From Desulfobacteraceae bacterium (lineage in GTDB: Bacteria; Desulfobacterota; DSM-4660; Desulfatiglandales; HGW-15), in NCBI GenBank assembly GCA_050122535.1, contig JASFIT010000001.1, positions 1 through 41,019 on the forward strand: 41,019 bases of DNA. The letters run 5' to 3'. The notes under the pieces were generated by a model. That model searched no databases, was not told the DNA's origin, and saw only the letters and a program-made list of their open reading frames with translations. The position numbers and the translations under genes are program-made. Below, piece by piece: positions 9,118 through 37,966 of the stretch. The stretch's first letter is position 1, and each line of letters starts with the position of its first letter.

Positions 9118-9437
9118 CACCACAGAGACACGGAGGACACAGAGAGGGGAATAGTTTTCATTGGGCGGGAGATACCGCCCAATGAAAAAATCTCTGCCTC
9201 CCACCCGCCGTAGCAGAGCTACTGCGGAGTGCGGGTCGGCCTAAATATCGGTGGCATGCGAAATGCTACTCCACGCGCAGGGTCGGGTTTTACACCCGAC
9301 CGATTGCCCGAAGGGCTGAGCCACTTTTGCCCGATCGCCGCCTGCCCGCCATCGCGAGCCGCTCAGGCGAGGCGGGCGGGTCTCCCGATCGGGCAAAAAA
9401 GGAAGTTGACTCTGTGCCCTCTGCGTCTCCGTGGTGA
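9118..9437. repeat. MITE-like composite repeat bounded by imperfect ~26-nt inverted repeats
   Basis: Left end CACCACAGAGACACGGAGGACACAGAG. The right end, reverse-complemented, is CACCACGGAGACGCAGAGGGCACAGAG. Interior hairpins: TTTTCATTGGGCGG-gagata-CCGCCCAATGAAAA (9155..9188), a REP unit at 9250..9301, and a TTGCCCGATCG...CGATCGGGCAA hairpin. Confidence 0.5.
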
Positions 9438-23472: not shown

Positions 23473-23922
23473 TTAGGCCGATTTGATCTCGATCTTTTTG
23501 ACGGACTGCTCCTTTGTCTTGGGCAGATTGAGTTTCAAGACACCGTCTTTGTAAGTAGCCTTTACCTTCGCAGAATCCACTTCCGATGGAAGTTCAAACG
23601 ACCTGGAGAAGGATCCATATCTTCGTTCTACTCTGTGGTAATTCTCCTCCTTCTCCTCCTGTTCGCTCTTTTTCTCCCCCTTGAGTGTGAGAACACGACC
23701 GTTCAGAGAAATGTCAATGTCCTTAGCCTCCATGCCAGGGATCTCCGCTTTTACGACAATCTCCTTGCCCGTCTCAGAGACGTCTATTGCGGGCATCCAC
23801 TCCCCCTCCCGAACGTGAAGATCAAAAGGCCGCCAGTCAAAGACCCGGTCAAACATTCTGTCCATTTCACTCCTAAATCGGTCCAGCTGTCTTCGCTCTC
23901 GCGATGGTATTAAATCTAACAT
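23473..23922 (-). CDS. Small heat-shock protein (Hsp20/alpha-crystallin family)
   Basis: 149 aa. PAIDVSETGKEIVVKAEIPGMEAKDIDISLNGRVLTLKGEKK...RSFELPSEVD...A.YKDGVLKLNLPK. Confidence 0.9.
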   Translation of the reverse strand: MLDLIPSRERRQLDRFRSEMDRMFDRVFDWRPFDLHVREGEWMPAIDVSETGKEIVVKAEIPGMEAKDIDISLNGRVLTLKGEKKSEQEEKEENYHRVERRYGSFSRSFELPSEVDSAKVKATYKDGVLKLNLPKTKEQSVKKIEIKSA

Positions 23923-24014: not shown

Positions 24015-24030
24015 GGCAACCACTGTGCCA
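24015..24030 (-). promoter_or_regulatory. Sigma-54 (-24/-12) promoter of hsp20
   Basis: The minus strand reads TGGCAC-AGTGG-TTGCC (GG-N10-GC, near consensus). The -12 element is 95 nt upstream of the ATG. Confidence 0.7.
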
Positions 24031-24083
24031 AGAGGTTAAGATATTGAAATTCCAGGGTTTCTATAATATGGCCAGGATTGAAG

Positions 24084-24100
24084 CGGAACTGCGAATTCCG
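24084..24100. promoter_or_regulatory. Candidate activator-binding palindrome (UAS), hsp20 proximal
   Basis: cgGAACtgcgaATTCcg, centred 63 bp upstream of the -24 GG. Confidence 0.55.
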
Positions 24101-24184
24101 GTTATTCCCTATAGATGTTATGCTACTTAGGTTCTCTTGGGTTTAAATCTCTCCAACATGTTGGATTAATTGAATGATCCAAAA

Positions 24185-24201
24185 AAGAACTGCCTGTTCC
24201 G
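24185..24201. promoter_or_regulatory. Candidate activator-binding palindrome (UAS), hsp20 distal
   Basis: aaGAACtgcctGTTCcg, 101 bp from the proximal site. Confidence 0.45.
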
Positions 24202-24230
24202 CTTTGTTTAACAGAAGAACTCGCAATTCC

Positions 24231-24809
24231 TCACCCTGTCTTACTCACAACCGTCAGTTCCTTTTCTCTTCTCTCCGCGTAGGGGTCTGCCAGGTGATGG
24301 CTGTATTTACTGATCATCCACAGCTCTGGAATGATTTCTGAGACCAACTCACCGTCATCAAATACGCGCACAATTGAGCTCTCTGAAACCACGATAGCTA
24401 CAGCATTAGTTTCTTTAGTGATTGAGGCTGCCGCCATATGACGGCTACCAAATCCCAAAGGTAGATCTATATTCTGAGACGCAGTGTTGATATAGAGGCA
24501 GGCCGAGACCACCACCCCATCATCAGAGATAACAAATGCGCCATCAAGTTGGGTCAGTTCTTTTACGGTCTCTCTCATGTTGGGATCATCTATACGTTTA
24601 AGCTCTTCGGAATGACCCTTTAGGGGATCGAGAATGATGTTCCTGGACCGTTTCAATACTTCATCTGAGTCCGAGACCACTAACAAGGTCCCCACTCTAC
24701 GGCCTTCACGACCCTCCCGGGCGATTTCCACAGCCAAAAGCAAAACATGCTCAAGGGTAATCAGGTTAATGTTTCGCTCTTCGCAACATACATCACGTAA
24801 GAGTTTCAA
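24231..24809 (-). CDS. Soluble DAC/DisA_N-domain protein (diadenylate-cyclase-like)
   Basis: 192 aa. TQLDGAFVISDDGVVVSA (DGA motif) and LPLGFGSRHMAAASITKETNAVAIVVSESS (RHR motif position reads RHM). No TM segments. Confidence 0.6.
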   Translation of the reverse strand: MKLLRDVCCEERNINLITLEHVLLLAVEIAREGREGRRVGTLLVVSDSDEVLKRSRNIILDPLKGHSEELKRIDDPNMRETVKELTQLDGAFVISDDGVVVSACLYINTASQNIDLPLGFGSRHMAAASITKETNAVAIVVSESSIVRVFDDGELVSEIIPELWMISKYSHHLADPYAERREKELTVVSKTG

Positions 24810-24908
24810 TGGAGTTTCCCTTCCAATCGTATTTCGGCTTACACCTATTACTGAGCATCAACTTCCTCGAAATCGCCATCCACAACATTTTCGTATGGCG
24901 GTATCTAA

Positions 24909-26135
24909 TCAAATAGATTCTCTGAAGTGGTCCCACAACCTAGGTAACTGGGTCCGAGGGTCAGCTACGTATTCATCTGGACTGATGTCGATAAAATCAT
25001 CATTTCTATTCTTTGAGTCCCTAAGGCGTAACTCATCAATCAAGCACTCAACATGCTCCTTTGGGTCAAGGGCGTGATCTAGGAGGCCAACGTATGCCAA
25101 TCTGGTCCACAACGACCATGGGGGTTTGGTACTGAGCGGGGAGTCTGGATCAGCTAGACTCAACCAGCTTACACCCTCCAGTCCCTGCTCGTTCAATCGC
25201 CTAGCAGACTCCAAAATTTCTCCAGATTCACGCATCTCACCCAATAAACTCCAGCCGATCTCAACTTCTATGGGTCGCCTGAAAAGCCATTGGGTCACCG
25301 TGCCTAAATATGCTGTGATCAATAGTTCGCCGACTAGATCCTCCCGTTTCTTGAGGCCGAGTTGCTCACTCTCGGAACCGCTCATTTTGAAACCATCCAC
25401 CTCAGCAGCAAGAGCTTGAGGCATTTGCGGATCCAAAAGCTCCGACCACCCTAAGCCCATGTAAATAGTTCCACTCTCGTCGCACTCCCTAATCTCGGCA
25501 ATATAGGACCTAAGCGCTATTTCAGCCACATGAAGCTCAGGCCTTGCCCATTCGAGAGCCCTGTCCAAGATGAGCCAACCCGTTAAGGCGGTGTGGCCGT
25601 GGACGGCAGTAACCACCTCGCGGAAAAGCCTTATCCTTTTCTGGAATATGAAGGGATCTGCCCACCAGTTGAAGGGCCAAAGATTTCGAATCCGACCATC
25701 CACAAAGACTTTGCCAGCTTTGGAGTCCCGGACTCCTCTAACCAAGTAAGGAGCCACGAAATTCAGCCCAAGTATTCGCTGGGCCGGTGCGATTAACCAG
25801 GCGTTGAGCTTAGCTTCGCCCACCTGGTCTAGGGCCTTAACAAGCCCATCCAGGTACTTCACTTTGGCCCTCGTCCCTTGCAACAGGGGCTCCTCCAAGA
25901 CTGGCAATAAGAGTCGGTCTAGGCCCAAAGACTTGGCCACTTTGGCCGCCCGGCCTAATCGAGCTGGCTCCGGCGGCTCCAGACCGACTAGACCCCTGAT
26001 TGGGCAGATGTATGTTGCTGAAATCGGCATTTCCTGCTTACGCTCATTTCTGAATTCTTCGAGGAGTCTCAGTTTTCCCGATTGCGGTATCTGCGATTTG
26101 CCGTGAGGAAAAGGGGATGCCAATTTGCGACGCAT
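24909..26135 (-). CDS. Hypothetical protein (408 aa). Possibly a TIM-barrel glycoside-hydrolase-like fold, but not securely recognised.
   Basis: Long ORF in an operon-like arrangement with the MarR and DAC genes. No diagnostic motif identified. Confidence 0.45.
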   Translation of the reverse strand: MRRKLASPFPHGKSQIPQSGKLRLLEEFRNERKQEMPISATYICPIRGLVGLEPPEPARLGRAAKVAKSLGLDRLLLPVLEEPLLQGTRAKVKYLDGLVKALDQVGEAKLNAWLIAPAQRILGLNFVAPYLVRGVRDSKAGKVFVDGRIRNLWPFNWWADPFIFQKRIRLFREVVTAVHGHTALTGWLILDRALEWARPELHVAEIALRSYIAEIRECDESGTIYMGLGWSELLDPQMPQALAAEVDGFKMSGSESEQLGLKKREDLVGELLITAYLGTVTQWLFRRPIEVEIGWSLLGEMRESGEILESARRLNEQGLEGVSWLSLADPDSPLSTKPPWSLWTRLAYVGLLDHALDPKEHVECLIDELRLRDSKNRNDDFIDISPDEYVADPRTQLPRLWDHFRESI

Positions 26136-26207
26136 CCCCTTTCCTGATAGATCAAATAAGGTCAGAACTCGAAGTTCCGCTTTCGAAGATTCCTTTGATC
26201 TTCTTGC

Positions 26208-26687
26208 TCATAGGTCTATTGAGGAAACTTCCACGGTTTTTATAAATTCCAGCAAGATTACAAGCCCTTCAGAAATTACCTGTAATTCCTCTAGGGCAAG
26301 TTTTTTAAAGTGGTTCGCAAGGAGCCTTTGAATTGGCCCACGCGCTGAATGGACAACTTGGCGGCCCATATCAGAGATTACCACATGAACAATGCGACGG
26401 TCTTCACTGAATCGCATTCGTTTCACTAGTCCTTTTTCTTGCAGTCGATCAACAATACCAGTAACCGTGGAGGGAGTTACAAGAACGTGCTTGCTTATAT
26501 CATTGATTGAAAGGCTGTTCTTTTTTAGCAACGTGCGCAGGCATAGTAATTGGCCTAAAGTGACTCCGAATTCTTTTTCCAAGTTTTTAGAGTACATGGT
26601 GGAAATATGGGTGGCAGCTCTTAATGCCAAAAAAATATTTTCCATGTTGTCTTGAATTAGACTTATTTCGGTATTCTCAGCATCCAT
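26208..26687 (-). CDS. MarR-family transcriptional regulator
   Basis: 159 aa. Winged-HTH region LGQLLCLRTLLKKNSLSINDISKHVLVTPSTVTGIVDRLQEKGLVKRMRFSEDRR. Confidence 0.8.
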   Translation of the reverse strand: MDAENTEISLIQDNMENIFLALRAATHISTMYSKNLEKEFGVTLGQLLCLRTLLKKNSLSINDISKHVLVTPSTVTGIVDRLQEKGLVKRMRFSEDRRIVHVVISDMGRQVVHSARGPIQRLLANHFKKLALEELQVISEGLVILLEFIKTVEVSSIDL

Positions 26688-26693
26688 ATGCGC

Positions 26694-26897
26694 TCACCCC
26701 TTCTTAGAAGCGGGCCGCCGCTCTAAACCGCTTCTCCGCTCTACGCCAACTTTGATGTCAGCAGCTTTTCTTCGGTCCCTACCACTTCTTCGGTCTTTGC
26801 CATTTCTCCGGTCTTGACCACTTCGTCTCTCAGGAATATGTTCGTTATAAGAAAATTGCCTTTCGACCAATCCCTGAACGCCTGTCGCCGTTATCAC
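26694..26897 (-). CDS. Small arginine-rich repeat protein (RRSGxDRR repeats), 6 nt upstream of marR
   Basis: 67 aa: ERRSGQDRRNGKDRRSGRDRRK...ERRSGLERR. GTG start with no clear Shine-Dalgarno, so coding status is uncertain. Confidence 0.4.
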   Translation of the reverse strand: MITATGVQGLVERQFSYNEHIPERRSGQDRRNGKDRRSGRDRRKAADIKVGVERRSGLERRPASKKG

Positions 26898-27062
26898 TTA
26901 AGAAAAGAATCAACTCTGACTCTATCACGTCCGCATATTCCTTTGTATGTAGCTGAAACCAACATAGTGTCTCTTCGACGCCCTATTTCAAAGTTTGTAA
27001 TGGTGTAGGGAGACTATCTAGTCTTCGCTGTCTTCTTGCTCCAATTGCCAACTGTGGCAAAC

Positions 27063-27343
27063 TCAGATTTCTTCTGGGGTTAGCTTTGCTCTCTTTCCAC
27101 CAACGAAAGTAAACTTGGGCGCTTTCGTGCTAAGTCGCAGCATCTTATTCTTGAAGACCTCCCGACCAGAACTGTACACACGCCTTAGTCCATTGTATCT
27201 ACCAGAATCTCACATCCATCATCGCAATTTCTTCTCAGAGCATTAAACAACTTCTGCACAGAAGAACCGTCAAGGTCACCTTTTAATTTTATACAAAGTT
27301 TACCGTTTCTTTGCAAAAAGCACATTCTGAAATTGGACGCCAT
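27063..27343 (-). pseudogene. STAS-like (anti-sigma-antagonist-like) gene split by a frameshift
   Basis: Frame 1: MASNFRMCFLQRNGKLCIKLKGDLDGSSVQKLFNALRRNCDDGCEILVDTMD-stop (27185..27343). The adjacent frame continues GLRRVYSSGREVFKNKMLRLSTKAPKFTFVGGKRAKLTPEEI (to 27063). Together these match the STAS pattern. Confidence 0.35.
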
Positions 27344-27368
27344 ACCCTCCACCCCTTTTCGAATCTTG

Positions 27369-27464
27369 CTAAAACCAGAAAAACCTTAGAGTGCTTGCCA
27401 CGCGACCTTTATATTTCCGGATAGCCTCTGCCACCTCCTTCATGGATCCCGGCTTGTCTTCTAG
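27369..27464 (-). pseudogene. ACT-domain remnant in the +1 frame of the CBS gene
   Basis: The alternative frame reads LEDKPGSMKEVAEAIRKYKGRVASTL, a typical ACT beta-alpha start as in CBS-ACT (AcuB-like) proteins. It is preceded by TAG and truncated after ~31 codons. Confidence 0.45.
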
Positions 27465-27903
27465 CTAAGAGGCAAAGAATATATTTCTTACTGAGCGCCG
27501 TTACAGACATTAGCGCTTTCAATATGTTTGTTTGTGTTATCATTCCTACCAGCTCTCCTTTCTGGTCAACCACAGGAGCCCCCGATATCTTATTATTCAG
27601 TAGTATTTCAGCAGTCTCTTCCACAGTATAATCAGGCTCAACTGTGATGGGATTTCTCGTCATAATTTCACTGACCTTGGTTTTGTTTTTGAGGTTAATG
27701 AGTTCATGAATATCCAGGCTGGTCGCCTCAGAAGCGGAACCTTCTTTGAGATCCCTATCCGTGACGATTCCCACCAGCTTACCTTTTTTCATGACAGGAA
27801 GCATAAGAATTTTATGCTTTTTCAGAAGCTTAACGGCATCCATCATGGTGTCGTTTATGTCAGCAGTAATCAGCTTTTTGCTCATCCAATTCTTAACTAG
27901 CAT
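27409..27903 (-). CDS. CBS-pair domain protein. The C-terminus is out of frame relative to an ACT-domain remnant.
   Basis: 164 aa. Two CBS motifs (MLPVMKKGKLVGIVTDRDL; GAPVVDQKGELVGMITQTNILKAL). The last ~25 aa (ILCLLARRQAGIHEGGGRGYPEI) look non-native. Confidence 0.7.
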   Translation of the reverse strand: MLVKNWMSKKLITADINDTMMDAVKLLKKHKILMLPVMKKGKLVGIVTDRDLKEGSASEATSLDIHELINLKNKTKVSEIMTRNPITVEPDYTVEETAEILLNNKISGAPVVDQKGELVGMITQTNILKALMSVTALSKKYILCLLARRQAGIHEGGGRGYPEI

Positions 27904-28328
27904 CTGTAGCCCTCTTCCTTGTTTTGAGAATTGTTAAAACAAGATTCTCTATCCCAACGGATGTCATTATGCGAACTTATTTATAGTTCTTAGGCTACTT
28001 CTTCGATAATCTGCCCCTCCCTAAACGAGGTGGTTACGCTACTTCGATAACTCACTTCCCCTTGTAGCCACTCGCTTTAGGGACTTTAATTTGGCCTTAA
28101 TAGGAAGCAACCTCCTCTCTAAAATCCTTATGGCAAGGTTTGTACCACAATCATAACCTATTGATATTTGTAAACTTATCTCTGTAGGGTATGGATCGGC
28201 GGAATTACTTGTTCTGATAAATTTGAGAAAACAGGAAGGTTAACTCCTACGGGAAACTCTGTAGGTCCCTAAGTTATTGAAATGGCGAGGACATTTAGAA
28301 AGCAGAATTTTGGGTTCCGTTTTTTTTG

Positions 28329-28357
28329 TTGCCGGAACCATAAGTTCTTTTTATTAT
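28329..28357 (+). promoter_or_regulatory. Sigma-70-like promoter of the activator gene, with the regulon palindrome in its spacer
   Basis: TTGCCG-N17-TATTAT. The palindrome cgGAACcataaGTTCtt occupies 28333..28349. A GGAGG Shine-Dalgarno precedes the ATG at 28395. Confidence 0.4.
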
Positions 28358-28394
28358 AAGAAGCCGCAAGAAAGCCAGCTTTGCGGAGGCCAAG

Positions 28395-29792
28395 ATGAAA
28401 TCTATTCTTGTTCTATCAGGAAACGAAGAGGTTTTCCGTAAGATTCGTTCCAGTTTTCATTCAGAGTACAGACTTGGAAGCGCATCCAGCAGTCAGGCCG
28501 CCTTGGATATACTCCACAAAAAGCGCTACGATTCTATTTTTTTTGACATTGGGCTGCTGCAAGAGGCAGTGGAAGGTAACCAATATAGAGCCGCCCTGGA
28601 GCCGTTCTGGCGTATGCACCCAACGATCAAGATCATCATTATGACCCCCCAAGAGATGATTAGAGAAGCTGTGAGGGCAGTAAAGGCAGGTGCAAGTGAC
28701 TATGTGACTTTCCCTATTGTTGAAGAGGAAGTTAGACTCATAACGGAAACAGTCATGGAATCTACGATTGTTCAGTCGGAACTTGAGTATCTGCGAGATC
28801 AATTTTGGGAACCAGAGACATTAGAGATCGTACAGACGAAGAATGCCCAGATGGAAAAGGTATATGATAAGATACGCTCCGTTGCGCCAACCAAAAGTAC
28901 AGTTCTGCTGATGGGCGAAACGGGAACAGGTAAGGGCGTGCTAGCTAATCTCATTCATCAGCATAGTAACCGACGGAATGACCAGTTTATCAGCGTGCAC
29001 TGCGGAGCAATTCCCGATACCTTATTAGAGAGCGAGCTTTTTGGACATGAAAAAGGCGCCTTCACAGGTGCTATTAAGCGAAAGCTTGGGAAATTTGAGA
29101 TTGCCAGTGGAGGAACCATTTTTCTGGATGAAGTTGGAACCATTACACCGTCCGCACAGATTAAACTATTACAGGTATTGCAGGATGGCACTTTTCAACG
29201 CGTGGGAGGAGAAGAGACCTTTGATGCGAATGTTAGGGTGGTCACTGCCACAAATGCGGATCTAAAGGAAATGTGTGAGGAGGGGAGGTTCAGGAAAGAC
29301 CTCTATTACCGATTAAATGTGTTTCCCATTGAAATTCCTCCATTGAGGGAGCGGCCGGAGGATATCCCTCATCTCGTGGAAGGGTCCCTGAAAAGGCTTA
29401 ATATGTTTAACACAAAGGAAATCTACCATATCGATACACAGGTGCTAGAAGCATTTAGGCATTACTCGTGGCCTGGAAATATCCGGGAATTGGAAAACCT
29501 TATTGAGAGGGCTTATATTTTGGAGAGTTCCCCTAGGTTGACACCGGAAAGTTTTCCGTCTGAACTGTTTGAATCTGGACTTTCTTTTGCAACTCTGTCG
29601 GTAGATTCTTCTTCTACCCTGGCGGAGGTAAGACGGAGGGGTATTGAAAATATTGAAAGGAACTACCTCAAGGACCTACTGACGCAAAAGAAAGGCAAAA
29701 TAAAGGAATCCGCAGAGGCTGCCGGAATTACCACACGCCAGCTCCACAAACTCATGGCGAAACATGAAATCCGCAAAGAAGAATTTAAATAA
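28395..29792 (+). CDS. Sigma-54-dependent transcriptional activator (NtrC/Fis family): receiver-like domain, AAA+ domain, Fis-type HTH
   Basis: 465 aa. Walker A GETGTGKG, intact GAFTGA (ESELFGHEKGAFTGA), Walker B FLDEVG, R-finger region, and C-terminal HTH (KIKESAEAAGITTRQLHKLM). Confidence 0.9.
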   Translation: MKSILVLSGNEEVFRKIRSSFHSEYRLGSASSSQAALDILHKKRYDSIFFDIGLLQEAVEGNQYRAALEPFWRMHPTIKIIIMTPQEMIREAVRAVKAGASDYVTFPIVEEEVRLITETVMESTIVQSELEYLRDQFWEPETLEIVQTKNAQMEKVYDKIRSVAPTKSTVLLMGETGTGKGVLANLIHQHSNRRNDQFISVHCGAIPDTLLESELFGHEKGAFTGAIKRKLGKFEIASGGTIFLDEVGTITPSAQIKLLQVLQDGTFQRVGGEETFDANVRVVTATNADLKEMCEEGRFRKDLYYRLNVFPIEIPPLRERPEDIPHLVEGSLKRLNMFNTKEIYHIDTQVLEAFRHYSWPGNIRELENLIERAYILESSPRLTPESFPSELFESGLSFATLSVDSSSTLAEVRRRGIENIERNYLKDLLTQKKGKIKESAEAAGITTRQLHKLMAKHEIRKEEFK

Positions 29793-29894
29793 CCCCGCCT
29801 TACACAAGAGCAAATCTTCCTGACCAAAGGTCGAGGCATCTTTCGTTAAACCTCAAAACGATCTCCTCCCGCTCCAAAGACCATGCTGTAATTG

Positions 29895-29959
29895 GTCATC
29901 CCGGCCCAGTCCCGCGGAGCGGGATGCTCGCCCGGAATGACAGCTTTGTTGAATTGCGA
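29895..29959. repeat. REP-like palindromic element (copy 2, uninterrupted)
   Basis: GTCATCCCGGCCCAGTCCCGCGGAGCGGGATGCTCGCCCGGAATGACAGCTTTGTTGAATTGCGA. Terminal inverted repeat GTCATCCCGG/CCGGAATGAC. Confidence 0.6.
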
Positions 29960-30017
29960 TACTGTCGCTGACAGGGGAAAGAAATTAAGTATTAACTTGA
30001 TCGCCTAGGACCATCTT

Positions 30018-30875
30018 TCAGACCAGTAGTTCAATCCCTTCTTGCACAGCAAAACAATCCACCGCGCTATTTGCTTCAAGTATTCTTTCTTGACAAAGGT
30101 CTACGTACATTTCTATTTGCTCGTCCGTATGGTCGGGATCATGATGGAATATGCCGAACCTCCTAACCTCTGCTTTAATACTAAAATCCGTTGCCGAGTT
30201 AAAAGTCGAGTGACCCCAGCCTCTAGTTAACCGGTATTCATTATCCGTGTATTGTGCGTCATGCAAAAGGAGATCAGCACCTTTGCAAAAATTAATGTAG
30301 CCGTCTATGTCTACCCTCTTCTCGTGTATAAAATCTAGCTCGTGATCAGTAAAAAACACGAAAGACTTCCCCTCCTCCATAATTTTGATCCCGTATGATC
30401 CATTTGGATGATTTAATCGTATAGGGACCACTTGGGCTGAACCGATGATCCTCTTCTGTGGATCACCCTCTGTGAAGTCGAACTCAGCCTTCATGGCATC
30501 GAATCGGACAGGGAAATATGGCGCTTCCATTTGATGTCTCAAGTAGTTCCGCAATGACCTTTTGGCTCGAGGACCTCCCCTTACATGGATCTTATAGCTC
30601 TCCAAGTATGCGGGTCCAAAAAACGGAAAACCCATAAGGTGATCCCAGTGGGCATGAGTAAGAAATAAATGTATCACCGTGATGTTTTCCTCTTTTGCCA
30701 GTGCCTTCCCCAACTTTCTGATGCCCGAGCCAGCATCAAGAATGATGACAGTCCCGTCGCTGAGCCTTACCTCAACGCAAGTGGTGTTCCCGCCGTATTT
30801 CACTGTACTTGGTCCTGGGGTAGGCAAAGAACCTCTACAACCCCAAATTCTTATTTTCATGGGAACACGCTCCAT
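30018..30875 (-). CDS. MBL-fold metallo-hydrolase
   Basis: 285 aa. IWGCRGSLP, ILDAGSG, LTHAHWDHLMGFPFF (HxHxDH), and a C-terminal GWGHST...HHDP. Confidence 0.8.
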   Translation of the reverse strand: MERVPMKIRIWGCRGSLPTPGPSTVKYGGNTTCVEVRLSDGTVIILDAGSGIRKLGKALAKEENITVIHLFLTHAHWDHLMGFPFFGPAYLESYKIHVRGGPRAKRSLRNYLRHQMEAPYFPVRFDAMKAEFDFTEGDPQKRIIGSAQVVPIRLNHPNGSYGIKIMEEGKSFVFFTDHELDFIHEKRVDIDGYINFCKGADLLLHDAQYTDNEYRLTRGWGHSTFNSATDFSIKAEVRRFGIFHHDPDHTDEQIEMYVDLCQERILEANSAVDCFAVQEGIELLV

Positions 30876-30933
30876 ATTACAAATGCACGCCTAACAAAAG
30901 TTTCGAGGTCCAGCAGCCACTGTAAATTGTTCA

Positions 30934-30949
30934 CGCAACAAATATGCCA
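30934..30949 (-). promoter_or_regulatory. Sigma-54 (-24/-12) promoter of the MBL-fold hydrolase gene
   Basis: The minus strand reads TGGCAT-ATTTG-TTGCG (GG-N10-GC), about 60 nt upstream of the ATG at 30875. Confidence 0.65.
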
Positions 30950-30986
30950 TTCTCTCTAAGGTAATGGAAGTTTTTAATCTCATCAT

Positions 30987-31003
30987 GGGAACTCTCAGTT
31001 CAC
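30987..31003. promoter_or_regulatory. Candidate activator-binding palindrome
   Basis: ggGAACtctcaGTTCac. Confidence 0.4.
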
Positions 31004-31016
31004 TTTCATGGCATAA

Positions 31017-31033
31017 CGGAACTGAAATTTCTT
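31017..31033. promoter_or_regulatory. Candidate activator-binding palindrome (degenerate right half)
   Basis: cgGAACtgaaaTTTCtt, 102 bp from the site at 31119. Confidence 0.4.
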
Positions 31034-31118
31034 ATTTAGATTTTCTTTGTCATTTCAATTTATTAGCCAAACGCTAGCCGATAATGGGTACATCAAAGTG
31101 CTCTTCGGACGTTCAAAA

Positions 31119-31135
31119 CGGAACAGATAATTCCG
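31119..31135. promoter_or_regulatory. Candidate activator-binding palindrome (UAS) for the 31190 promoter
   Basis: cgGAACagataATTCcg, centred 64 bp upstream of the -24 GG. Confidence 0.55.
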
Positions 31136-31189
31136 AGTCCGTTTCCCCCAAGAAACTAAAAGTTGCGGGATATCAGGTCCTTATCGGTT

Positions 31190-31205
31190 TGGCATAACTG
31201 TTGCT
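31190..31205 (+). promoter_or_regulatory. Sigma-54 (-24/-12) promoter of the 31299..34224 gene string
   Basis: TGGCAT-AACTG-TTGCT (GG-N10-GC), about 95 nt upstream of the ATG at 31299. Confidence 0.7.
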
Positions 31206-31298
31206 CCGGTTTCCATGAACTAAACGTGAGACCCTTCCTGAACTCGACACCTATCCTGTTGAGGGAATGGACGTTATAAGCAAAAAGGAGATCCGGTG

Positions 31299-31511
31299 AT
31301 GAACGTATTAGCTCAGAAAAGTGGAACTTTTGGTCTAGATTCCCCTTACCTAAGCGCCGTCAGGACGACGCTATATGACCTTATTGAAGCGATGACTGAC
31401 GAGGCCGAACCGACTAATGAGGATTTGATTTTTGTGGCCGTCTTAGATCTTACTGAATCTGGCAAAATAAAATGGACACGACCGCGTCGAGCTTTCAAGC
31501 TTTTATATTAA
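31299..31511 (+). CDS. Small acidic hypothetical protein (70 aa)
   Basis: ATG 31299 lies 8 nt after GGAG. It is the first gene after the sigma-54 promoter. No family recognised. Confidence 0.5.
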   Translation: MNVLAQKSGTFGLDSPYLSAVRTTLYDLIEAMTDEAEPTNEDLIFVAVLDLTESGKIKWTRPRRAFKLLY

Positions 31512-31614
31512 TGATTGGCAAGGTCCAGGTAGCAAGACACCGACTGACGAAACGAAATAGCAGGAACCCTAACTGTTACCCCCATGGCATCCATACAGAA
31601 GAGAGGAGAATCAG

Positions 31615-31866
31615 ATGCTCAATACAAATGATAGGCTAATTACGATCCGCGGCCTTATCATCCCAGTGAATTGGGACGAGGGGGGCGAAGTAACCGCAAT
31701 TGCTACCTCCACCTTTGATGAGGAGGAGTATCTGCTGGATTATAATAAAAAAATAGAACGACTCTTCTCGCTTATCCGAAAAGAAGTGGAAGTCACCGGC
31801 TATGTAAGAAAGGAGAAGGGGAAAAAAATCATGAAAGTCCAAAAATTTCACCTAAAGAGGACCTAA
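31615..31866 (+). CDS. Small protein, paralog 1 of a three-member family in this window (unrecognised family)
   Basis: 83 aa with a GAGAGGAG Shine-Dalgarno. Shares ITIxG-x-(I/V)xPxxWDxxGxV(T/S)...(E)xLF...VEVTGxV...(I/L)xVxx(F/Y) with 34806..35072 and 35144..35479. Confidence 0.6.
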   Translation: MLNTNDRLITIRGLIIPVNWDEGGEVTAIATSTFDEEEYLLDYNKKIERLFSLIRKEVEVTGYVRKEKGKKIMKVQKFHLKRT

Positions 31867-31917
31867 CATACGGGACCCGCCACACTCCATACCACTGCTT
31901 CACCCGCCCATGAATCC

Positions 31918-33060
31918 ATGTCTGGCAATCGTATAATCGGCTATGACTTTGCCAGGGCTCTAACCCTTCTCGGCATGCTGCTCATAAATTTTTGGGTGAT
32001 GATGGAAAATACTCCTTTCGATCCCCATTGGCTCGTTTCCACGTTGGATCTCATTCAAGGACGGGCAGCAGCAACATTTGTTCTTCTCGCCGGAGTCGGT
32101 CTGTCCTTGATGTCAAAGAGTGCATTGCTGAACAATGACGCTGCTCGTATGAGAGAAAACCGGTATCTAATTCTTAAACGCGCGCTCTTTCTTTTTATCA
32201 TAGGGATGTTGAACAGTCTGATCTGGAGAGCAGATATCCTGCACGTCTATGGAATTTACTTTGTAATTGGGATGTGTCTCTTGATCGTTCCTACTCGTCG
32301 ACTGTTGCTGCTATCTATTATTCCTGTGGCCGTTTCTTCATTTTTCATGTTGGCGGTTGATTTTGACAGAGGACTGGCGTTTAAGACAGACACCTATTCA
32401 GCTTTCTGGAAACCAACGGCAATGGCTTGGGATATCTTTTTCAATGGCCTTTACCCCGTATTTCCTTGGGCCACTTTCCTGATCCTGGGGATGTGGCTCG
32501 GTCGACAAAGGCTGTCTGACCCTGTTTTGAGGAAGAAAATTTTGTTTATAGGAATCGGCGTCGTTGCTTTTGCTGAATGCATTTCACGCATGGTTTTTCA
32601 CCTCTCTACCTCTGGCTTGAGTGTCTTGGACGCTGATGCGTTACTCATGTGGTTCACCATAGAGCCTTGGGATCCCATGCCACTTTTCATGCTTTCAGCG
32701 GGCGGAACCGCGGTTATCGTTGTCAGCTTCAGCATTTCCATTGCACAGAAGTGGGGCAACACCAAATGGATTCTGCCTTTTGTGTCTGTTGGTCAGACTA
32801 CCCTCACTCTTTATGTCGCCCACATAATTATCGGTAGCATTGCCTTGGAAGTGATGAAAGTGTACGAAGTAGAGCCCTTTCTTTTCCCTATTTGGGGGGC
32901 ATGCGCTTTCTACATCAGTGCACTCATTCTTTGTTCTTATTGGAGAAAAAGTTTTCAAAAAGGGCCCTTAGAGTGGCTCATGCGAAGTTCTCTTGATATT
33001 CCTTTTCCGTTGCGGGCCTTTAGGCACGCAAGAGTAAAATTGGCACAACCTGATTTTTAG
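31918..33060 (+). CDS. Polytopic membrane protein, DUF418/DUF1624 (YeiB-like, acyltransferase-3-like) family
   Basis: 380 aa. N-terminus RIIGYDFARALTLLGMLLINF is typical of the family. About 10 hydrophobic helices. Confidence 0.65.
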   Translation: MSGNRIIGYDFARALTLLGMLLINFWVMMENTPFDPHWLVSTLDLIQGRAAATFVLLAGVGLSLMSKSALLNNDAARMRENRYLILKRALFLFIIGMLNSLIWRADILHVYGIYFVIGMCLLIVPTRRLLLLSIIPVAVSSFFMLAVDFDRGLAFKTDTYSAFWKPTAMAWDIFFNGLYPVFPWATFLILGMWLGRQRLSDPVLRKKILFIGIGVVAFAECISRMVFHLSTSGLSVLDADALLMWFTIEPWDPMPLFMLSAGGTAVIVVSFSISIAQKWGNTKWILPFVSVGQTTLTLYVAHIIIGSIALEVMKVYEVEPFLFPIWGACAFYISALILCSYWRKSFQKGPLEWLMRSSLDIPFPLRAFRHARVKLAQPDF

Positions 33061-33153
33061 ATGAGATATGACGGGCATTAGACTCAGCATACACCTCGTT
33101 TATGCAAGTTGCTTTCTTGAGCGTTTGACGAGGACTAAAGAGGAGGAATTCGT

Positions 33154-33315
33154 ATGAATCAAAATTTCAAAGGGCCACCCGAAACCGAATCTGCTTCTAC
33201 TCATCCAGATTTGGTCATTGATGATATTATCCAATCCATTGAGAAGGTGGATAGGGAAATAGAGAGATTTTACAAAATCCATAGAACCGAATTGACAGCC
33301 ACAGATGATGACTGA
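33154..33315 (+). CDS. Small ORF (53 aa), below the ORF-track cut-off
   Basis: ATG preceded by AGAGGAGG with 5-nt spacing. Translation: MNQNFKGPPETESASTHPDLVIDDIIQSIEKVDREIERFYKIHRTELTATDDD. Confidence 0.4.
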   Translation: MNQNFKGPPETESASTHPDLVIDDIIQSIEKVDREIERFYKIHRTELTATDDD

Positions 33316-33470
33316 AGCTCCTCAGGAGGGCGAGTGGACCAGGAGTTGACGTCTTTATTGCACCCGTTTGGTTCTATCCAAATCTGGTCCTGTGGGATTT
33401 AGGGAAACTGAATGCTTGACGATGATGATTCGGACAGTAGGGTCAGCGCGACCGAAAGGAGGAAAAGACC

Positions 33471-33686
33471 ATGAGAATCAATTGTAATATTTGCGGGTAT
33501 GAGTTGAATTTGGATCACAAAGTGTTCCAGAACTATGAAGGTCCTATCAAGTGCTTCTATTGCGGCAATGTGATGCTTATCAAAACTAGCCGGGGAATAG
33601 TAGACTCTATAGAATCATCAAGCGTTCTACTACCACAATCCCCCGGACGTGCGGTCAGGCGCACGCCTCAAAACCCGGAATTGTGA
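33471..33686 (+). CDS. Small zinc-ribbon protein (71 aa)
   Basis: CNIC...(22 aa)...CFYC. Strong Shine-Dalgarno AAAGGAGG upstream. Confidence 0.55.
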   Translation: MRINCNICGYELNLDHKVFQNYEGPIKCFYCGNVMLIKTSRGIVDSIESSSVLLPQSPGRAVRRTPQNPEL

Positions 33687-33723
33687 TTTCTTCCAACTTT
33701 CAGGATGAAATAGGAGCTCGATC

Positions 33724-34224
33724 ATGCAGAACCAGAGACTGGATGTAAAGCAAGAGGTAGCCGAAAAAGGTTCTACAATTTTGGTGGCAGTAGATTTTTC
33801 CCCTTGTTCCCTGTTGGCATTGAGGAAGGCAAAGTCTATATTGGGGCAAAAGCCAGCCCGAATCTTGGTGCTCCATGTGATTGACAAAGATTTCATTGAA
33901 AGATGTGTTCGCCACGGCCTGGGGTCAGAGGAAGAAGTCAGCAAAAAACTATTTCTTCGTGCCAAAGAAAAACTTGATCATGTCCTTCGTCAAGAAGGAA
34001 TGGATGTTGAGCACGTGGAAAAATTGGTTTGCCCAGGGACGCCCTACCTGGAAATAAACAAGAGGGCACTCCAGATCGGCGCCGACATGGTTGTAATGGG
34101 ATGTAGTGGAAACTCCGGGGACATGGATAATATCTTTTTCGGTAGCACAACCGAGAGGGTCTTGAGATTTATCAAACGTCCCGTGCTCTGTGTGCCAGAT
34201 AGCGAAGACAATAAACTGGACTAA
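33724..34224 (+). CDS. Universal stress protein (UspA family)
   Basis: 166 aa. ILVAVDFSPCS, ILVLHVID, MVVMGCSG, FGSTTERVLRFIKRPVLCVP. Confidence 0.8.
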   Translation: MQNQRLDVKQEVAEKGSTILVAVDFSPCSLLALRKAKSILGQKPARILVLHVIDKDFIERCVRHGLGSEEEVSKKLFLRAKEKLDHVLRQEGMDVEHVEKLVCPGTPYLEINKRALQIGADMVVMGCSGNSGDMDNIFFGSTTERVLRFIKRPVLCVPDSEDNKLD

Positions 34225-34310
34225 AGAATCCGCACCCGAAGAATACGGCTCTAAGTATGCCCCCCATAGGGGGGCGTCACTGCTGAATCCCACGGTACCC
34301 TGACCAGGAA

Positions 34311-34397
34311 AAATCCCCCCGCCCGCCATTCCATCCTCCGTAGCAAGCTACTGCGGAGGACGGGCGCGAACCGCTCAGGCGAGGCGGGGGGGGATTT
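34311..34397. repeat. REP-like long hairpin related to elements at 9200..9390
   Basis: AAATCCCCCCGCC...GGCGGGGGGGGATTT arms. The interior CCGTAGCAAGCTACTGCGG and CCGCTCAGGCGAGGCGGG both recur in the 9118..9437 element. A separate perfect hairpin GCCCCCC-ata-GGGGGGC lies at 34259..34275. Confidence 0.5.
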
Positions 34398-34517
34398 GAT
34401 AGAGATTCCTTTAATCAACACCATCTCGGCCTTCAGTCCAGCCCCATTCGGGACCGGCATAGCCCGTCCCACATGACCGCACCCATAGGGTACGGGTTTC
34501 CAAGTCTCACTAAATTT

Positions 34518-34534
34518 CGGAATTCTGGGTTCCG
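34518..34534. promoter_or_regulatory. Candidate activator-binding palindrome (distal)
   Basis: cgGAATtctggGTTCcg. Confidence 0.5.
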
Positions 34535-34548
34535 ATAGCCGAAGAAAG

Positions 34549-34565
34549 CAGAACTCAAAGTTCTT
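34549..34565. promoter_or_regulatory. Candidate activator-binding palindrome
   Basis: caGAACtcaaaGTTCtt. Confidence 0.4.
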
Positions 34566-34649
34566 CGCGTCATTTTCACGTTTTTTCAATATCTTAAACG
34601 TCTACAAAGGTTGTTGCGGCTGACAGCCAGCCCACCCAGCCGAGCCTAT

Positions 34650-34666
34650 CTGAACTATGAGTTCTT
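34650..34666. promoter_or_regulatory. Candidate activator-binding palindrome (proximal) for the 34720 promoter
   Basis: ctGAACtatgaGTTCtt, centred 63 bp upstream of the -24 GG. Confidence 0.45.
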
Positions 34667-34719: not shown

Positions 34720-34735
34720 TGGCATATCTATTGCT
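34720..34735 (+). promoter_or_regulatory. Sigma-54 (-24/-12) promoter of the 34806 operon
   Basis: TGGCAT-ATCTA-TTGCT (GG-N10-GC), about 72 nt upstream of the ATG at 34806. Confidence 0.7.
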
Positions 34736-34805: not shown

Positions 34806-35072
34806 ATGCAAGAGCATCAAAAGAGAGAGATCACCATTCGCGGCACTATCCTTCCAGATGAGTGGGACAAGAATGGTCATGTTACGAGTGTCGGGATAGG
34901 GACCGAAGATGAAGAGGATTATATTATCTTTCTGGATAAAATTGGAGAGAAATTATTCAAGTTCGTCGACCGAAAAGTAGAGGCTACGGGTACTGTGAAG
35001 AACGTGTACGGCGATTTTGTCCTCACGGTAAACAACTACAAGCTCTTACCAGAGGACGATGAAGAAGAATAA
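34806..35072 (+). CDS. Small protein, paralog 2 of the three-member family (acidic C-terminal tail)
   Basis: 88 aa. REITIRGTILPDEWDKNGHVTSVGIGTEDEEDYII...GEKLFKFVDRKVEATGTVKN...VLTVNNYKLLPEDDEEE. Confidence 0.6.
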   Translation: MQEHQKREITIRGTILPDEWDKNGHVTSVGIGTEDEEDYIIFLDKIGEKLFKFVDRKVEATGTVKNVYGDFVLTVNNYKLLPEDDEEE

Positions 35073-35143: not shown

Positions 35144-35479
35144 ATGAAAAGGGAAGATTCATCAGAGGAGATTACCATAACGGGTTATGTGACACCAAGA
35201 GATTGGGACTGGAACGATGTTGTGAGCGCTGTCAGCATAGAGACCCATGATAATGTGTATGCAATCGAACCAAATAGCCTGGGTGAAGAACTCTTCAGTG
35301 AACTGGATAGCGAGGTGGAAGTAACAGGATTTCTCGAAAAAGACAGGGATGGAACAAAGCGAATAACTGTTACAAGCTATGAAGTCCTGATCGAACCCGG
35401 CGACAGAGAAGAGGAGAATTACGGATATGACGATGATGGGCAGGAGTTTGGATCTAAACAAGGGGAAAGTCCGATCTAA
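35144..35479 (+). CDS. Small protein, paralog 3 of the three-member family (long acidic tail)
   Basis: 111 aa. EEITITGYVTPRDWDWNDVVSAVSIETHDNVYAI...GEELFSELDSEVEVTGFLEKD...RITVTSYEVL, then an acidic tail. Confidence 0.6.
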   Translation: MKREDSSEEITITGYVTPRDWDWNDVVSAVSIETHDNVYAIEPNSLGEELFSELDSEVEVTGFLEKDRDGTKRITVTSYEVLIEPGDREEENYGYDDDGQEFGSKQGESPI

Positions 35480-35615: not shown

Positions 35616-35996
35616 ATGAATCCTAGGCAGCTTGAGTATTTCCGACGTAAACTCCTCTCCTGGCGTGAGCAACTTTTGAAAGAATCGGGTGAGAGCCTCC
35701 AGCGCCTAAAGGAAAGTAGCACAAGGGAAATTGATCTTTTGGACCAAGGCACTCTTGAGACGAGTAGCAATTTAAAGCTTAGCACTCGCGATAGGTGCCT
35801 GGTACTTGTCGACGAAATTGATGATGCTTTAGAGAGGATCAAGGATGGTACCTACGGGTACTGTGAGGATACAGGCGAAGAAATTGGGTTGAAGCGCCTT
35901 GAAGCCCGTCCCACTGCTAGGCTCTGTCTTGAAGCCCAAGAATGGCGTGAACGTGGGAGGAGGCGAAAGGGGCGGTGGAATCTGGCCTATGCCTGA
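35616..35996 (+). CDS. dksA: DksA/TraR-family RNA-polymerase-binding protein, zinc-independent DksA2-like variant
   Basis: 126 aa. Coiled-coil tip DLLDQG (DxxDxA-like). The C-terminal finger reads CEDT-x17-CLEA (CxxT...CxxA) where canonical DksA has CxxC-x17-CxxC. LKRLEARPTARLC is conserved. Confidence 0.75.
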   Translation: MNPRQLEYFRRKLLSWREQLLKESGESLQRLKESSTREIDLLDQGTLETSSNLKLSTRDRCLVLVDEIDDALERIKDGTYGYCEDTGEEIGLKRLEARPTARLCLEAQEWRERGRRRKGRWNLAYA

Positions 35997-36343: not shown

Positions 36344-37966
36344 ATGGCAAAAAAGGAAATCAAATATAGCGCGCAGGCCAGAGAAAAGATGATGAAAGGT
36401 GTGGACACCCTGGCCAATGCCGTTAAAGTAACCCTCGGACCAAAGGGCCGGAATGTGCTCCTCGAGAAGTCGTGGGGCTCGCCCAAGATCAGCAAAGACG
36501 GAGTGACCGTAGCCAAGGAGATCGAACTTGAAGATAAGTTCGAGAACATGGGCGCACAGATGGTCAAGGAGGTGGCCTCCAAAACCTCTGATGCTGCAGG
36601 AGACGGCACCACAACGGCCACCATCCTTGCTCAGGCTATATACCGCGAAGGCTCCAAGCTATTAGCCGCGGGGTCTAACCCTATGGCCATAAAAAGAGGT
36701 GTGGAAAAGGCAGTGGGAGTCGTGGTGGAAGAGCTTAAGAAGCTCTCAAAACCAACGAAAGACAAGGTGGAAATTGCCCAAGTGGGCACCATCTCGGCAA
36801 ACAACGATAGCACCATCGGGGATATTATCTCTGAGGCCATGGAAAAGGTGGGCAAAGAGGGCGTTATCACCGTTGAAGAAGCCAAAGCTATGGAGACCAC
36901 TCTGGAGATTGTGGAAGGGATGCAGTTTGATCGTGGATACCTGAGCCCCTACTTCGTGACGGATGCTGAGAAAATGGAGGTAGAGCTCGAGGAACCTTAC
37001 ATCCTTTTGAATGAAAAAAAGATCAGCAACATGAAAGACCTCCTTCCTATCCTGGAACAAATCGCCAAGATGGGTAAACCCTTTCTGATCATTGCAGAGG
37101 ATGTGGACGGGGAGGCCCTGGCCACCCTGGTGGTCAACAAGCTACGTGGGACCCTGAAATGTGCAGCCGTCAAGGCACCTGGTTTCGGCGACAGGCGTAA
37201 GGCGGTACTCCAGGATATTGCCATACTGACGGGTGGTCAGGTGGTCAGTGAAGACCTGGGCATAAAGCTAGAAAATATTACCTTAAATGACTTGGGCACT
37301 GCCAAGCGAATCACCATTGACAAGGACAACACCACGATCGTGGATGGAGGAGGTGACCGTGTGGCCCTTGAGGGCAGGGTTAAACAGCTAAGGGTCCAAG
37401 TTGATGAGACCACCTCTGATTACGACAGAGAAAAACTCCAGGAGCGGCTGGCCAAGCTGATCGGGGGCGTCGCCGTGATTAACGTAGGCGCAGCGACCGA
37501 AACCGAAATGAAGGAGAAAAAGGACAGGGTTGAGGACGCCCTTAATGCCACCCGGGCTGCAGTGGAAGAAGGGATTGTTCCGGGCGGTGGTGTTGCCTAC
37601 TTGAGGGCGATGAAAGCGCTTGACAAACTCCAGTTGCCTGGAGAAGAGCAATTTGGGATCAAGCTGGTAAGACGGGCCCTCGAAGAACCCATTAGAGAAA
37701 TTGCCAACAATGCAGGTTTTGAGGGATCTATTGTCACCAGGCGAGTTATGGATGCTGAGGGCAATTTTGGATTCAATGCTGAAACAGGTGTCTACGAAGA
37801 CCTGATGAAAGCGGGTGTTGTGGATCCCACCAAGGTGACTCGATTGGCGCTCCAAAATGCAGCATCTGTGGCTGGACTCCTTCTCACCACCGAAGCCATG
37901 GTTGCTGAGAAGCCGGAAAAGAGGAAGGCTGCGGCACCGGCTATGCCTCCAGAGGATATGTACTAG
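36344..37966 (+). CDS. groEL: Chaperonin GroEL
   Basis: 540 aa. [37 protein letters not shown]...[13 protein letters not shown]. Confidence 0.95.

Follow-up and report, generated by a model that had tools for sequence, protein, structure and literature searches.

Which protein reads the 17-bp palindrome that recurs in a 41,019-nucleotide stretch of DNA from a Desulfobacteraceae bacterium (contig JASFIT010000001.1, positions 1 to 41,019; hereafter the window), and what does the palindrome do there? An original prediction, made from the sequence alone, had listed nine copies as a candidate enhancer for a sigma-54 activator encoded in the same window. We consider that the palindromes are very probably upstream activating sequences of this enhancer-binding protein, whose gene lies at 28395–29792. 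This reading is supported by the register of the palindromes to sigma-54 promoters, by an accompanying box resembling a site for integration host factor (IHF), by the 17-bp geometry, by conservation at orthologues of the activator, and by matches that stay at chance level near 157 unrelated activators. Those features of a sigma-54 activator enhancer that can be tested in sequence, namely the promoter, the fixed register, a nearby cognate activator and conservation, are all present.

The window was compared with ten other loci that encode relatives of the activator, seven at 68–86% protein identity (L161–L167) and the more distant L001, L002 and L081, giving 11 loci in all. The nine 17-mers were each found where they had been placed, and the motif can be written more fully as TCGGAAC-N5-GTTCCGA than the earlier cgGAAC-N5-GTTCcg. 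The claim that no equivalent palindrome occurs elsewhere in the window was wrong: five more are present, at 24215–24231, 28200–28216, 28303–28319, 26163–26179 and, weakly, 33676–33692. An additional weak palindrome lies at 24246–24262. By count alone the excess is modest, with 27 matches to GAAC-N5-GTTC (≤1 mismatch) in the window against 15.8 ± 4.1 expected; 13 of the 27 fall inside about 1.9 kb of intergenic DNA (binomial P ~1e-10, by our own calculation).

Since circularity was to be avoided, a symmetrised 19-mer matrix was trained on 32 sites from L162, L163, L165, L166 and L002 only (consensus TCGGAACTgtcAGTTCCGA). With this matrix, 14 sites in the window score 13.5 bits or more: 12 sites that stand in triads at sigma-54 promoters, 26162–26180 (21.1 bits) and 33675–33693 (14.2 bits). 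Dinucleotide-preserving shuffles (n = 300) gave 0.53 ± 0.68 such sites with a maximum of 3, which makes the excess in the window about 26-fold, and 1.78 Mb of real DNA around the 157 unrelated activators gave 0.3 sites per 41 kb, which does not exceed the shuffle value. The motif is thus not equally common elsewhere, an outcome that had been named in advance as one that would count against an enhancer.

A scan of the window for sigma-54 promoters (TGGCAC-N5-TTGC, at most two mismatches for the four promoters concerned) places three sites upstream of each of four promoters. Measured from the palindrome centre to the first G of the −24 GG, the sites are centred 62–64 bp (S1), 164–166 bp (S2) and 194–196 bp (S3) upstream. 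The promoters, their sites (listed without strand) and the IHF-like boxes are as follows; entries marked as new were not in the original prediction.

24015–24030, minus strand: sigma-54 promoter of hsp20 (gene 23473–23922, HSP20 Pfam match), TGGCACagtggTTGCc
24037–24049, minus strand: IHF-like box 1 of the hsp20 promoter, TTTCAATATCTTA, starting 20 bp upstream of the GG
24084–24100: S1 of the hsp20 promoter, cgGAACtgcgaATTCcg, 63 bp upstream of the −24 GG, 20.1 bits
24154–24166, minus strand: IHF-like box 2 of the hsp20 promoter, ATCCAACATGTTG, 27 bp promoter-side of the S2 centre, two mismatches, the weakest of the four
24185–24201: S2 of the hsp20 promoter, 164 bp upstream, 16.0 bits
24215–24231: S3 of the hsp20 promoter, 194 bp upstream, 14.7 bits, abutting the stop codon of the diadenylate cyclase (DAC) gene; new
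28132–28147, minus strand: sigma-54 promoter of the CBS-pair gene (27409–27903), TGGTACaaaccTTGCc, of the form TGGTAC-N5-TTGC; new
28154–28166, minus strand: IHF-like box 1 of the CBS promoter, TATCAATAGGTTA, a perfect match
28200–28216: S1 of the CBS promoter, 62 bp upstream, 16.0 bits; new
28270–28282, minus strand: IHF-like box 2 of the CBS promoter, TTTCAATAACTTA
28303–28319: S2 of the CBS promoter, 165 bp upstream, 15.7 bits; new
28333–28349: S3 of the CBS promoter, 195 bp upstream
30987–31003: S3 of the 31190 promoter, 196 bp upstream, 13.6 bits
31017–31033: S2 of the 31190 promoter, 166 bp upstream, 17.3 bits
31053–31065, plus strand: IHF-like box 2 of the 31190 promoter, TTTCAATTTATTA
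31119–31135: S1 of the 31190 promoter, 64 bp upstream, 18.2 bits
31171–31183, plus strand: IHF-like box 1 of the 31190 promoter, TATCAGGTCCTTA
31190–31205, plus strand: sigma-54 promoter of the 31190 operon, TGGCATaactgTTGCt
34518–34534: S3 of the 34720 promoter, 195 bp upstream, 21.7 bits
34549–34565: S2 of the 34720 promoter, 164 bp upstream, 15.7 bits
34584–34596, plus strand: IHF-like box 2 of the 34720 promoter, TTTCAATATCTTA
34650–34666: S1 of the 34720 promoter, 63 bp upstream, 16.9 bits
34701–34713, plus strand: IHF-like box 1 of the 34720 promoter, TATCAACAAGTTA, a perfect match
34720–34735, plus strand: sigma-54 promoter of the 34720 operon, TGGCATatctaTTGCt
30934–30949, minus strand: possible fifth sigma-54 promoter, for the gene of a metallo-β-lactamase-fold protein (30018–30875), TGGCATatttgTTGCg, weaker than the four and identical in L161

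The proximal site had been predicted 63–64 bp from the first G at three promoters, and the exact values agree with this: 63 bp at hsp20 (G at 24029, minus strand), 64 bp at 31190 (G at 31191) and 63 bp at 34720 (G at 34721). A second site 101–102 bp further upstream is also present at that distance, but its restriction to two promoters was an undercount, since the 34720 promoter has one too. Instead of three promoters with nine sites, the window holds four promoters with twelve phased sites. The sites that had been ascribed to the activator gene's own promoter form the triad of the divergent CBS promoter (62/165/195 bp), although one of them, 28333–28349, also lies inside the sigma-70-like promoter of the activator gene. 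Elsewhere in the window, a sigma-54-like element, TGGCATgcgaaATGCt, is located at 9252–9267 upstream of electron-transfer-flavoprotein genes (9473–11270) with no palindromes nearby; if real, it would be part of another activator's regulon.

All four promoters carry two IHF-like boxes (WATCAR-N4-TTR) at fixed offsets, so that at the sequence level an IHF consensus lies between activator site and promoter, as in IHF-assisted sigma-54 promoters. When promoter regions of the compared loci are aligned on the GG, box 1 appears as aATATCAa.a.gTTA, with its start 20 bp ahead of the first G. In 13 of 20 promoters it stands exactly at this offset and in constant orientation (0–1 mismatch to WATCAANNNNTTR), and an A-tract at −33 to −30 lies ahead of it. 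Box 1 matches the IHF consensus WATCARxxxxTTR quoted for Desulfovibrio vulgaris (PMC3897727). The second box, WTTCAA-N4-TTA, starts 27–30 bp promoter-side of S2 in at least 15 of the 20 promoters.

The elements fall into two modules. The proximal module consists of S1, an IHF-like box about 43 bp on, and the −24 GG 20 bp past the box; with the GG at about −25 from the transcription start, S1 would lie near −88 and the box near −40. In the distal module, S3 and S2 stand 30–31 bp apart, and the second IHF-like box follows 27–30 bp later. In site-specific consensuses, conservation is highest in the halves with which S3 and S2 face each other (GTTCCGAT ... ATCGGAAC). The S1-to-GG distance (61–66 bp) and the S3-to-S2 distance (30–31 bp) hold in all loci. 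Three classes of S2-to-S1 gap occur, of 92–95, 99–107 and 133 bp. Differences in this gap are absorbed by the stretch from box 2 to S1 (62–65, 73–77 or about 101 bp). Since only this stretch varies, the layout is best described as a pair of rigid modules with a linker of variable length between them. The main gap class spans 99–107 bp, and strict helical phasing of one module to the other is therefore not supported.

Is this arrangement tied to the activator? When genomes and metagenomes were scanned with the activator protein, most matches were generic activators of at most 50% identity, and the only true relatives among the matches were L001 (63%), L002 (58%, from a Calditrichaeota bin) and L081 (55%). 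A protein database holds more than 120 clusters at 67–93% identity to the activator, from Desulfobacteraceae, Desulfatiglandales and other deltaproteobacterial metagenome bins, with more distant relatives in Calditrichota. Conservation of motif and spacing in relatives, which the original prediction had proposed as a check, was upheld upstream of orthologous genes: triads stand upstream of sigma-54 promoters in nine of the ten other loci (L161, L162, L163, L165, L166, L167, L001, L002 and L081), and IHF-like boxes accompany them at activator orthologues of 55–86% identity. Pooled over the 11 loci, the site-to-GG distances peak at 60–69 bp (20 pairs), 160–169 bp (16) and 190–199 bp (18), above a background that, on either side of the promoter, is mostly 0–2 per bin of 10 bp and reaches 3–5 in the bins adjoining the peaks. 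The exception is L164, which has single sites and one pair and in which lone sites flank the activator gene on both sides. One lone site there (11472–11490) lies 22 bp before a gene for a 148-residue protein and resembles the orphan site of the window at 26163–26179. At L001 (1696–1834), the motif is altered to CGGAAS-N5-STTCCG and the recognition helix of the activator reads ITSRHLHDLM instead of ITTRQLHKLM. These two changes may reflect co-variation of protein and site, as a single and weak case.

The activator itself is encoded as follows.

28395–29792, plus strand: activator gene, encoding a degenerate receiver, a sigma-54 AAA+ domain with GAFTGA, and a Fis-type helix-turn-helix

The AAA+ domain matches Sigma54_activat (PF00158) at 229 bits, an AAA lid is present, and the Walker A motif (GETGTGKG) and GAFTGA loop are intact. 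The C-terminal helix-turn-helix matches HTH_8 (E = 4e-4), a match that is also precomputed for many orthologues, and the 17-bp palindrome fits a dimeric helix-turn-helix of the Fis type. The receiver (28395–28760) scores weakly, at 42 bits. In an alignment of 11 family members with Escherichia coli NtrC, the equivalent of D54 (D51) is invariant across the family. In place of K104, every one of the 11 members has F, Y, C or E; the position of D12 holds Q, E, M or R and is mostly non-acidic, and that of T82 is variable. Within the window, the activator gene has no kinase gene beside it. The activator thus lacks features of a canonical two-component response regulator of the NtrC type, and its receiver is probably independent of phosphorylation. 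The named NCBIfam activator families (PrsR/PEP-CTERM, AtoC, NifA, NtrC, NorR, ZraR, PspF and others) all match below their equivalog cut-offs; TIGR02915 comes closest, with 372 bits where 502.6 are required, and the others are further below. The nearest solved structure is Aquifex NtrC1. From its sequence, we place the activator in an unnamed family of enhancer-binding proteins and regard its receiver as atypical.

It is improbable that a different regulator binds the palindromes, be it a second sigma-54 activator whose gene lies elsewhere in the genome, or a non-activator protein such as the MarR-type one of the window (26208–26687). The thought arises because Desulfobacteria hold dozens of sigma-54 activators (PMC12316311), so that assignment by adjacency can fail, and because the strongest orphan site, 26163–26179, sits right at the 3' end of the MarR gene within the same gene island. 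Against it, the triads accompany orthologues of the activator in nine of ten other loci despite differing neighbour genes, whereas a MarR gene occurs in none of the seven loci with gene calls, and the 157 neighbourhoods of other activators remain at chance level. Moreover, register to the −24/−12 elements combined with an IHF box is the signature of an activator site and not of a sigma-70 repressor, and the changed motif of L001 coincides with a changed recognition helix (TTRQLHKLM to TSRHLHDLM), weak as this single case is. The orphan itself is a near-perfect site (21.1 bits) between the stop codon of the MarR gene (26208) and the ATG (26135) of a gene for a 408-residue protein. A sigma-54 promoter for it was sought and rejected; the only candidate is a poor TGGCAT-N5-TTTC 50 bp off, within an open reading frame (ORF).

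We return to the enhancer-binding protein and ask how its own gene is expressed. The gene has a sigma-70-like promoter.

28329–28357, plus strand: sigma-70-like promoter of the activator gene, TTGCCG-17-TATTAT, a consensus match only, conserved with L161

Site 28333–28349 sits between the −35 and −10 hexamers of this promoter. The block made of a T-tract, the site, the −10 hexamer and the ribosome-binding site is nearly identical in L161, whereas the DNA upstream of the block is not. In L161, the site stands alone, in no triad, 54 bp before the true ATG of the activator gene, the same distance as in the window. Since this lone site is conserved, a separate operator function is supported, which suggests that 28333–28349 is also an autoregulatory operator through which the activator represses its own gene. 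The original prediction, which had named the activator gene's own promoter as a location of sites, is in part borne out by this.

Could repression be the main business of the sites, with the activator-like protein acting chiefly as a repressor at sigma-70 promoters or as a roadblock? Besides the site within the activator's own promoter, lone sites lie 22–40 bp before start codons in the window (26163–26179 and 33676–33692) and in L164, and enhancer-binding proteins with dual activator and repressor roles are known, PexR being an example (PMC12754779). This reading is more doubtful still than that of a different regulator. Twelve of the 14 sites are phased to sigma-54 promoters at 63–196 bp, where occlusion is impossible, and the GAFTGA loop and ATPase motifs are intact. 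Repression fits the single sites only, and an enhancer-binding protein that additionally represses at its own promoter already accommodates it. The site at 33676–33692 (14.2 bits) is a weak single one in the 3' end of a zinc-ribbon ORF (33471–33686), 40 bp before the ATG of the Usp gene; the matching position of L161 has no match of at least 12.5 bits, and the site is probably a chance match.

That the palindromes are no protein sites at all (chance or composition, a repetitive extragenic palindromic or miniature inverted-repeat transposable element, an RNA hairpin or a terminator) can be dismissed, for although 15.8 matches to GAAC-N5-GTTC are expected per window by chance and a minus-strand hairpin weakly resembling a terminator is also called at 26163–26179, just past the MarR gene, the independent matrix gives the excess over shuffles reported above, the arms are conserved and the spacers variable (the opposite of a repeat copy or hairpin loop), the sites lie upstream of promoters and hence mostly in untranscribed DNA, their positions relative to the −24 element agree within 5 bp across lineages whose activators are 55–72% identical, Tandem Repeats Finder shows no array at the sites, Rfam gives no match in the window, and protein identities of 55–86% exclude that the related loci are duplicate assemblies.

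Several points weigh against the palindromes being enhancer sites of this activator. The whole case is drawn from sequence. The HTH_8 match, at 20.5 bits, is slightly below the curated Pfam cut-off of 22, and the motif frequency in this organism refers to the 41-kb contig. The IHF boxes are consensus matches. Two sites, 26163–26179 and 33676–33692, have no sigma-54 promoter in register, and the possible fifth promoter (30934–30949) is out of register, with palindromes at 47, 77 and 179 bp; no IHF box is present at its −20 position. Finally, linkers of the main class differ by as much as 8 bp, which speaks against a strictly phased loop, and the joining of three dimers into one hexamer is an inference.

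Which genes would such an enhancer control? The first 20 kb of the window hold metabolic and hydrogenase-maturation genes, and the palindromes lie in a gene island at 23.4–38 kb with the following genes.

23473–23922, minus strand: hsp20
24231–24809, minus strand: DacZ-like diadenylate cyclase
24909–26135, minus strand: 408-residue protein with no family match
26208–26687, minus strand: MarR-type regulator
27409–27903, minus strand: CBS-pair protein, with a weak CbpB-like match
30018–30875, minus strand: metallo-β-lactamase-fold protein
31296–33686, plus strand: several small ORFs and a DUF418 protein
31296–31511, 31615–31866, 31918–33060 (DUF418), further small ORFs and 33724–34224 (Usp), plus strand: genes of the 31190 operon, in its predicted extent
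34806–35072 and 35144–35479, plus strand: two small ORFs
35616–35996, plus strand: DksA-like protein
36039 onward, plus strand: groES
36344–37966, plus strand: groEL

By position, the predicted targets in the window are hsp20, the CBS-pair gene, three small OB-fold-like proteins, DUF418, Usp, DksA-like and possibly GroES/GroEL. The 34720 promoter precedes the ORFs 34806–35072 and 35144–35479 and the dksA-like gene 35616–35996, in an operon of presumed extent. groES starts 43 bp past the dksA-like gene, with no terminator found between them. The CIRCE element (TTAGCACTC-N9-GAGTGCTAA, ≤3 mismatches) has no match anywhere in the window, and control of groESL by HrcA/CIRCE was rejected since this defining repeat is absent. 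With neither CIRCE nor a terminator, groESL may be transcribed from the 34720 sigma-54 promoter. In L166, a Cpn10 gene lies directly behind a triad promoter.

Among the first ORFs behind triad promoters is a small-protein family that is represented in all ten related loci, including L001, L002 and L081, and that has three paralogues of 83–111 residues in the window (31615–31866, 34806–35072 and 35144–35479). These proteins match no Pfam or NCBIfam family. An AlphaFold model (pLDDT 82) shows a five-stranded barrel with one helix, and its best PDB matches by Foldseek are the OB-folds of Stn1, RPA, SSB and the LysRS N-domain, all weak (E of 6e-4 or worse, TM 0.5–0.6). The modelled resemblance to an OB-fold is generic and assigns no function.

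Other recurrent targets across the loci are DksA-like proteins, hsp20 and, in L166, ClpX. An operon of a lysine-2,3-aminomutase-like radical SAM protein, two ATP-grasp ligases and a GNAT acetyltransferase lies behind triad promoters in L163 (15.6–21.3 kb), L165 (12.2–18.1 kb) and L167 (12.2–18.4 kb), and an aminomutase-like gene follows a triad promoter in L001 (2.2–4.6 kb). This operon may make a compatible solute derived from β-lysine. Judged from gene content, the regulated genes look like a stress and proteostasis regulon, possibly with an osmotic component. In L165 and L167, a DAC-YbbR cyclase gene is located upstream of the activator at 7.9–9.4 kb, on the opposite strand with one small gene between. 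This cyclase, together with the DacZ-like and CBS-pair genes of the island, hints at a link to c-di-AMP or osmotic signalling.

A few other features of the island were noted. The CBS-pair gene would have a leader of about 218 nt (27904–28121) after its sigma-54 promoter. Directly upstream of the MarR gene lies a 67-residue ORF (26694–26897, minus strand) with no family match; its repeated (D/E)RRSG units come from an 18-bp tandem repeat (26768–26824, 3.2 copies). The absence of Rfam matches covers the CBS-gene leader and the gap at 26688–27408, which has no long ORF.

If the enhancer works as its layout suggests, activator dimers would bind the three palindromes via the C-terminal Fis-type helix-turn-helix, and three dimers would supply the six subunits of an active AAA+ ring. 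The distal bend would bring S3–S2 back onto S1, the proximal bend would deliver the ring to sigma-54 RNA polymerase, and ATP hydrolysis through the GAFTGA loop would open the promoter. As far as the sequence goes, the sites form a conserved enhancer for an activator regulon, so far undescribed, of Desulfobacteraceae-type bacteria, acting by the textbook mechanism and by no new one. What could be new, if confirmed, is the two-module architecture and the sigma-54-driven chaperone regulon.

A wider picture can be drawn from these elements, and we offer it tentatively, as a possibility that, taken as a whole, has the odds against it. The two-module layout would be a distinct enhancer design in which two IHF bends fold three dimers into one hexamer on the promoter. 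The degenerate receiver of this orphan activator would sense a proteotoxic or osmotic signal without phosphorylation, perhaps via the small OB-fold-like proteins or c-di-AMP. In Desulfobacteria and their relatives, the activator would then act as master switch of a regulon for chaperones and compatible solutes that depends on sigma-54. This regulon would comprise hsp20, GroES/GroEL, ClpX, DksA-like and the lysine-2,3-aminomutase-like operon, and would replace control of the sigma-32 or HrcA type.

Our literature search turned up no account of the motif or the activator family, nor of an hsp20/groES regulon that depends on sigma-54 in Desulfobacteria. In a survey from 2025, the only groups reported to have sigma-54 promoters at chaperone genes are Planctomycetota and Bacteroidota. 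An apparently unnamed, widespread family of sigma-54 activators hereby gains a DNA motif, a promoter architecture and a first list of targets, and its regulons become predictable by a simple scan in genomes of uncultured sulfate reducers. For small heat-shock, chaperonin, DksA-like and Usp genes, the results suggest control by sigma-54 and an enhancer-binding protein, and not by sigma-32 or HrcA/CIRCE. The regular 2 + 1 layout of sites with two IHF-like boxes provides a natural test case for dimer-to-hexamer assembly.

How does this system compare with known ones? NtrC has the same architecture as the activator, with a receiver, an AAA+ domain and a Fis-type helix-turn-helix, and its site is likewise a 17-bp palindrome of the 6-N5-6 type, although the motif (TGCACC-N5-GGTGCA) differs. 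At glnAp2, two strong NtrC sites are placed about three helical turns apart, like S3 and S2 (30–31 bp), and repression of sigma-70 promoters by overlapping NtrC sites is known as well. NtrB phosphorylates NtrC at D54, whereas the activator lacks the K104 and D12 equivalents and an adjacent kinase gene. NtrC governs nitrogen assimilation, and the regulon predicted here consists of stress genes.

PspF controls a stress regulon at the pspA promoter, with activator sites about 80–126 bp upstream and an IHF site near −45, similar to the arrangement here. Its sites in a divergent intergenic region repress the sigma-70 promoter of pspF itself, which is analogous to the presumed role of site 28333–28349, and the first gene of the pspA operon encodes a small protein, a likeness to the small target ORFs. 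PspF differs in having no N-terminal regulatory domain and in being controlled by PspA binding, and there is no evidence that the small OB-fold-like proteins regulate the activator. The match of the activator to the PspF family model (TIGR02974) is below the cut-off.

In NorR of E. coli, which also uses three inverted-repeat sites per promoter, all three enhancer sites at norVW are required for ATPase activity and open complex formation (PMC2831303). This requirement serves as a precedent that supports the proposed templating of a hexamer by three DNA-bound dimers. The NorR sites lie together within 66 bp, whereas the sites here are split 2 + 1, about 100 bp apart (gap 92–133 bp), with an IHF-like box in the gap. 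NorR senses nitric oxide via a GAF domain, and the activator here has a degenerate receiver in its place.

Among sulfate reducers, DVU3305 of D. vulgaris is a general-stress sigma-54 response regulator whose heat-induced targets include UspA-domain proteins and adjoin its own gene (PMC3333781, PMC4641369). It shares with the activator the lineage type and Usp-type targets beside its own gene. It was rejected as an orthologue, as it has a GAFSGA loop and belongs to a canonical system with a histidine kinase partner and a Lon-type response regulator, against GAFTGA, a degenerate receiver and no adjacent kinase gene.

The closest likeness in promoter layout is to OrpR (DVU2106), which acts at the IHF-dependent sigma-54 promoters of orp1/orp2 in D. 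vulgaris (PMC3897727, PMC8359166). OrpR differs from the activator in being a single-component regulator with an iron-sulfur-cluster sensory domain, another motif and other targets, and no conserved distal pair with a second IHF box has been described for it. Both systems belong to a sulfate-reducer lineage and have palindromic sites upstream of sigma-54 promoters with a WATCARxxxxTTR IHF site between, divergent promoters in one intergenic region, and an activator gene with a sigma-70 promoter. At the experimentally studied orp2 promoter, the activator site lies at −88, the IHF site at −43 and the sigma-54 element at −11 (PMC3897727), a geometry close to that of the proximal module here, in which the positions deduced from sequence place S1 near −88 and the box near −40.

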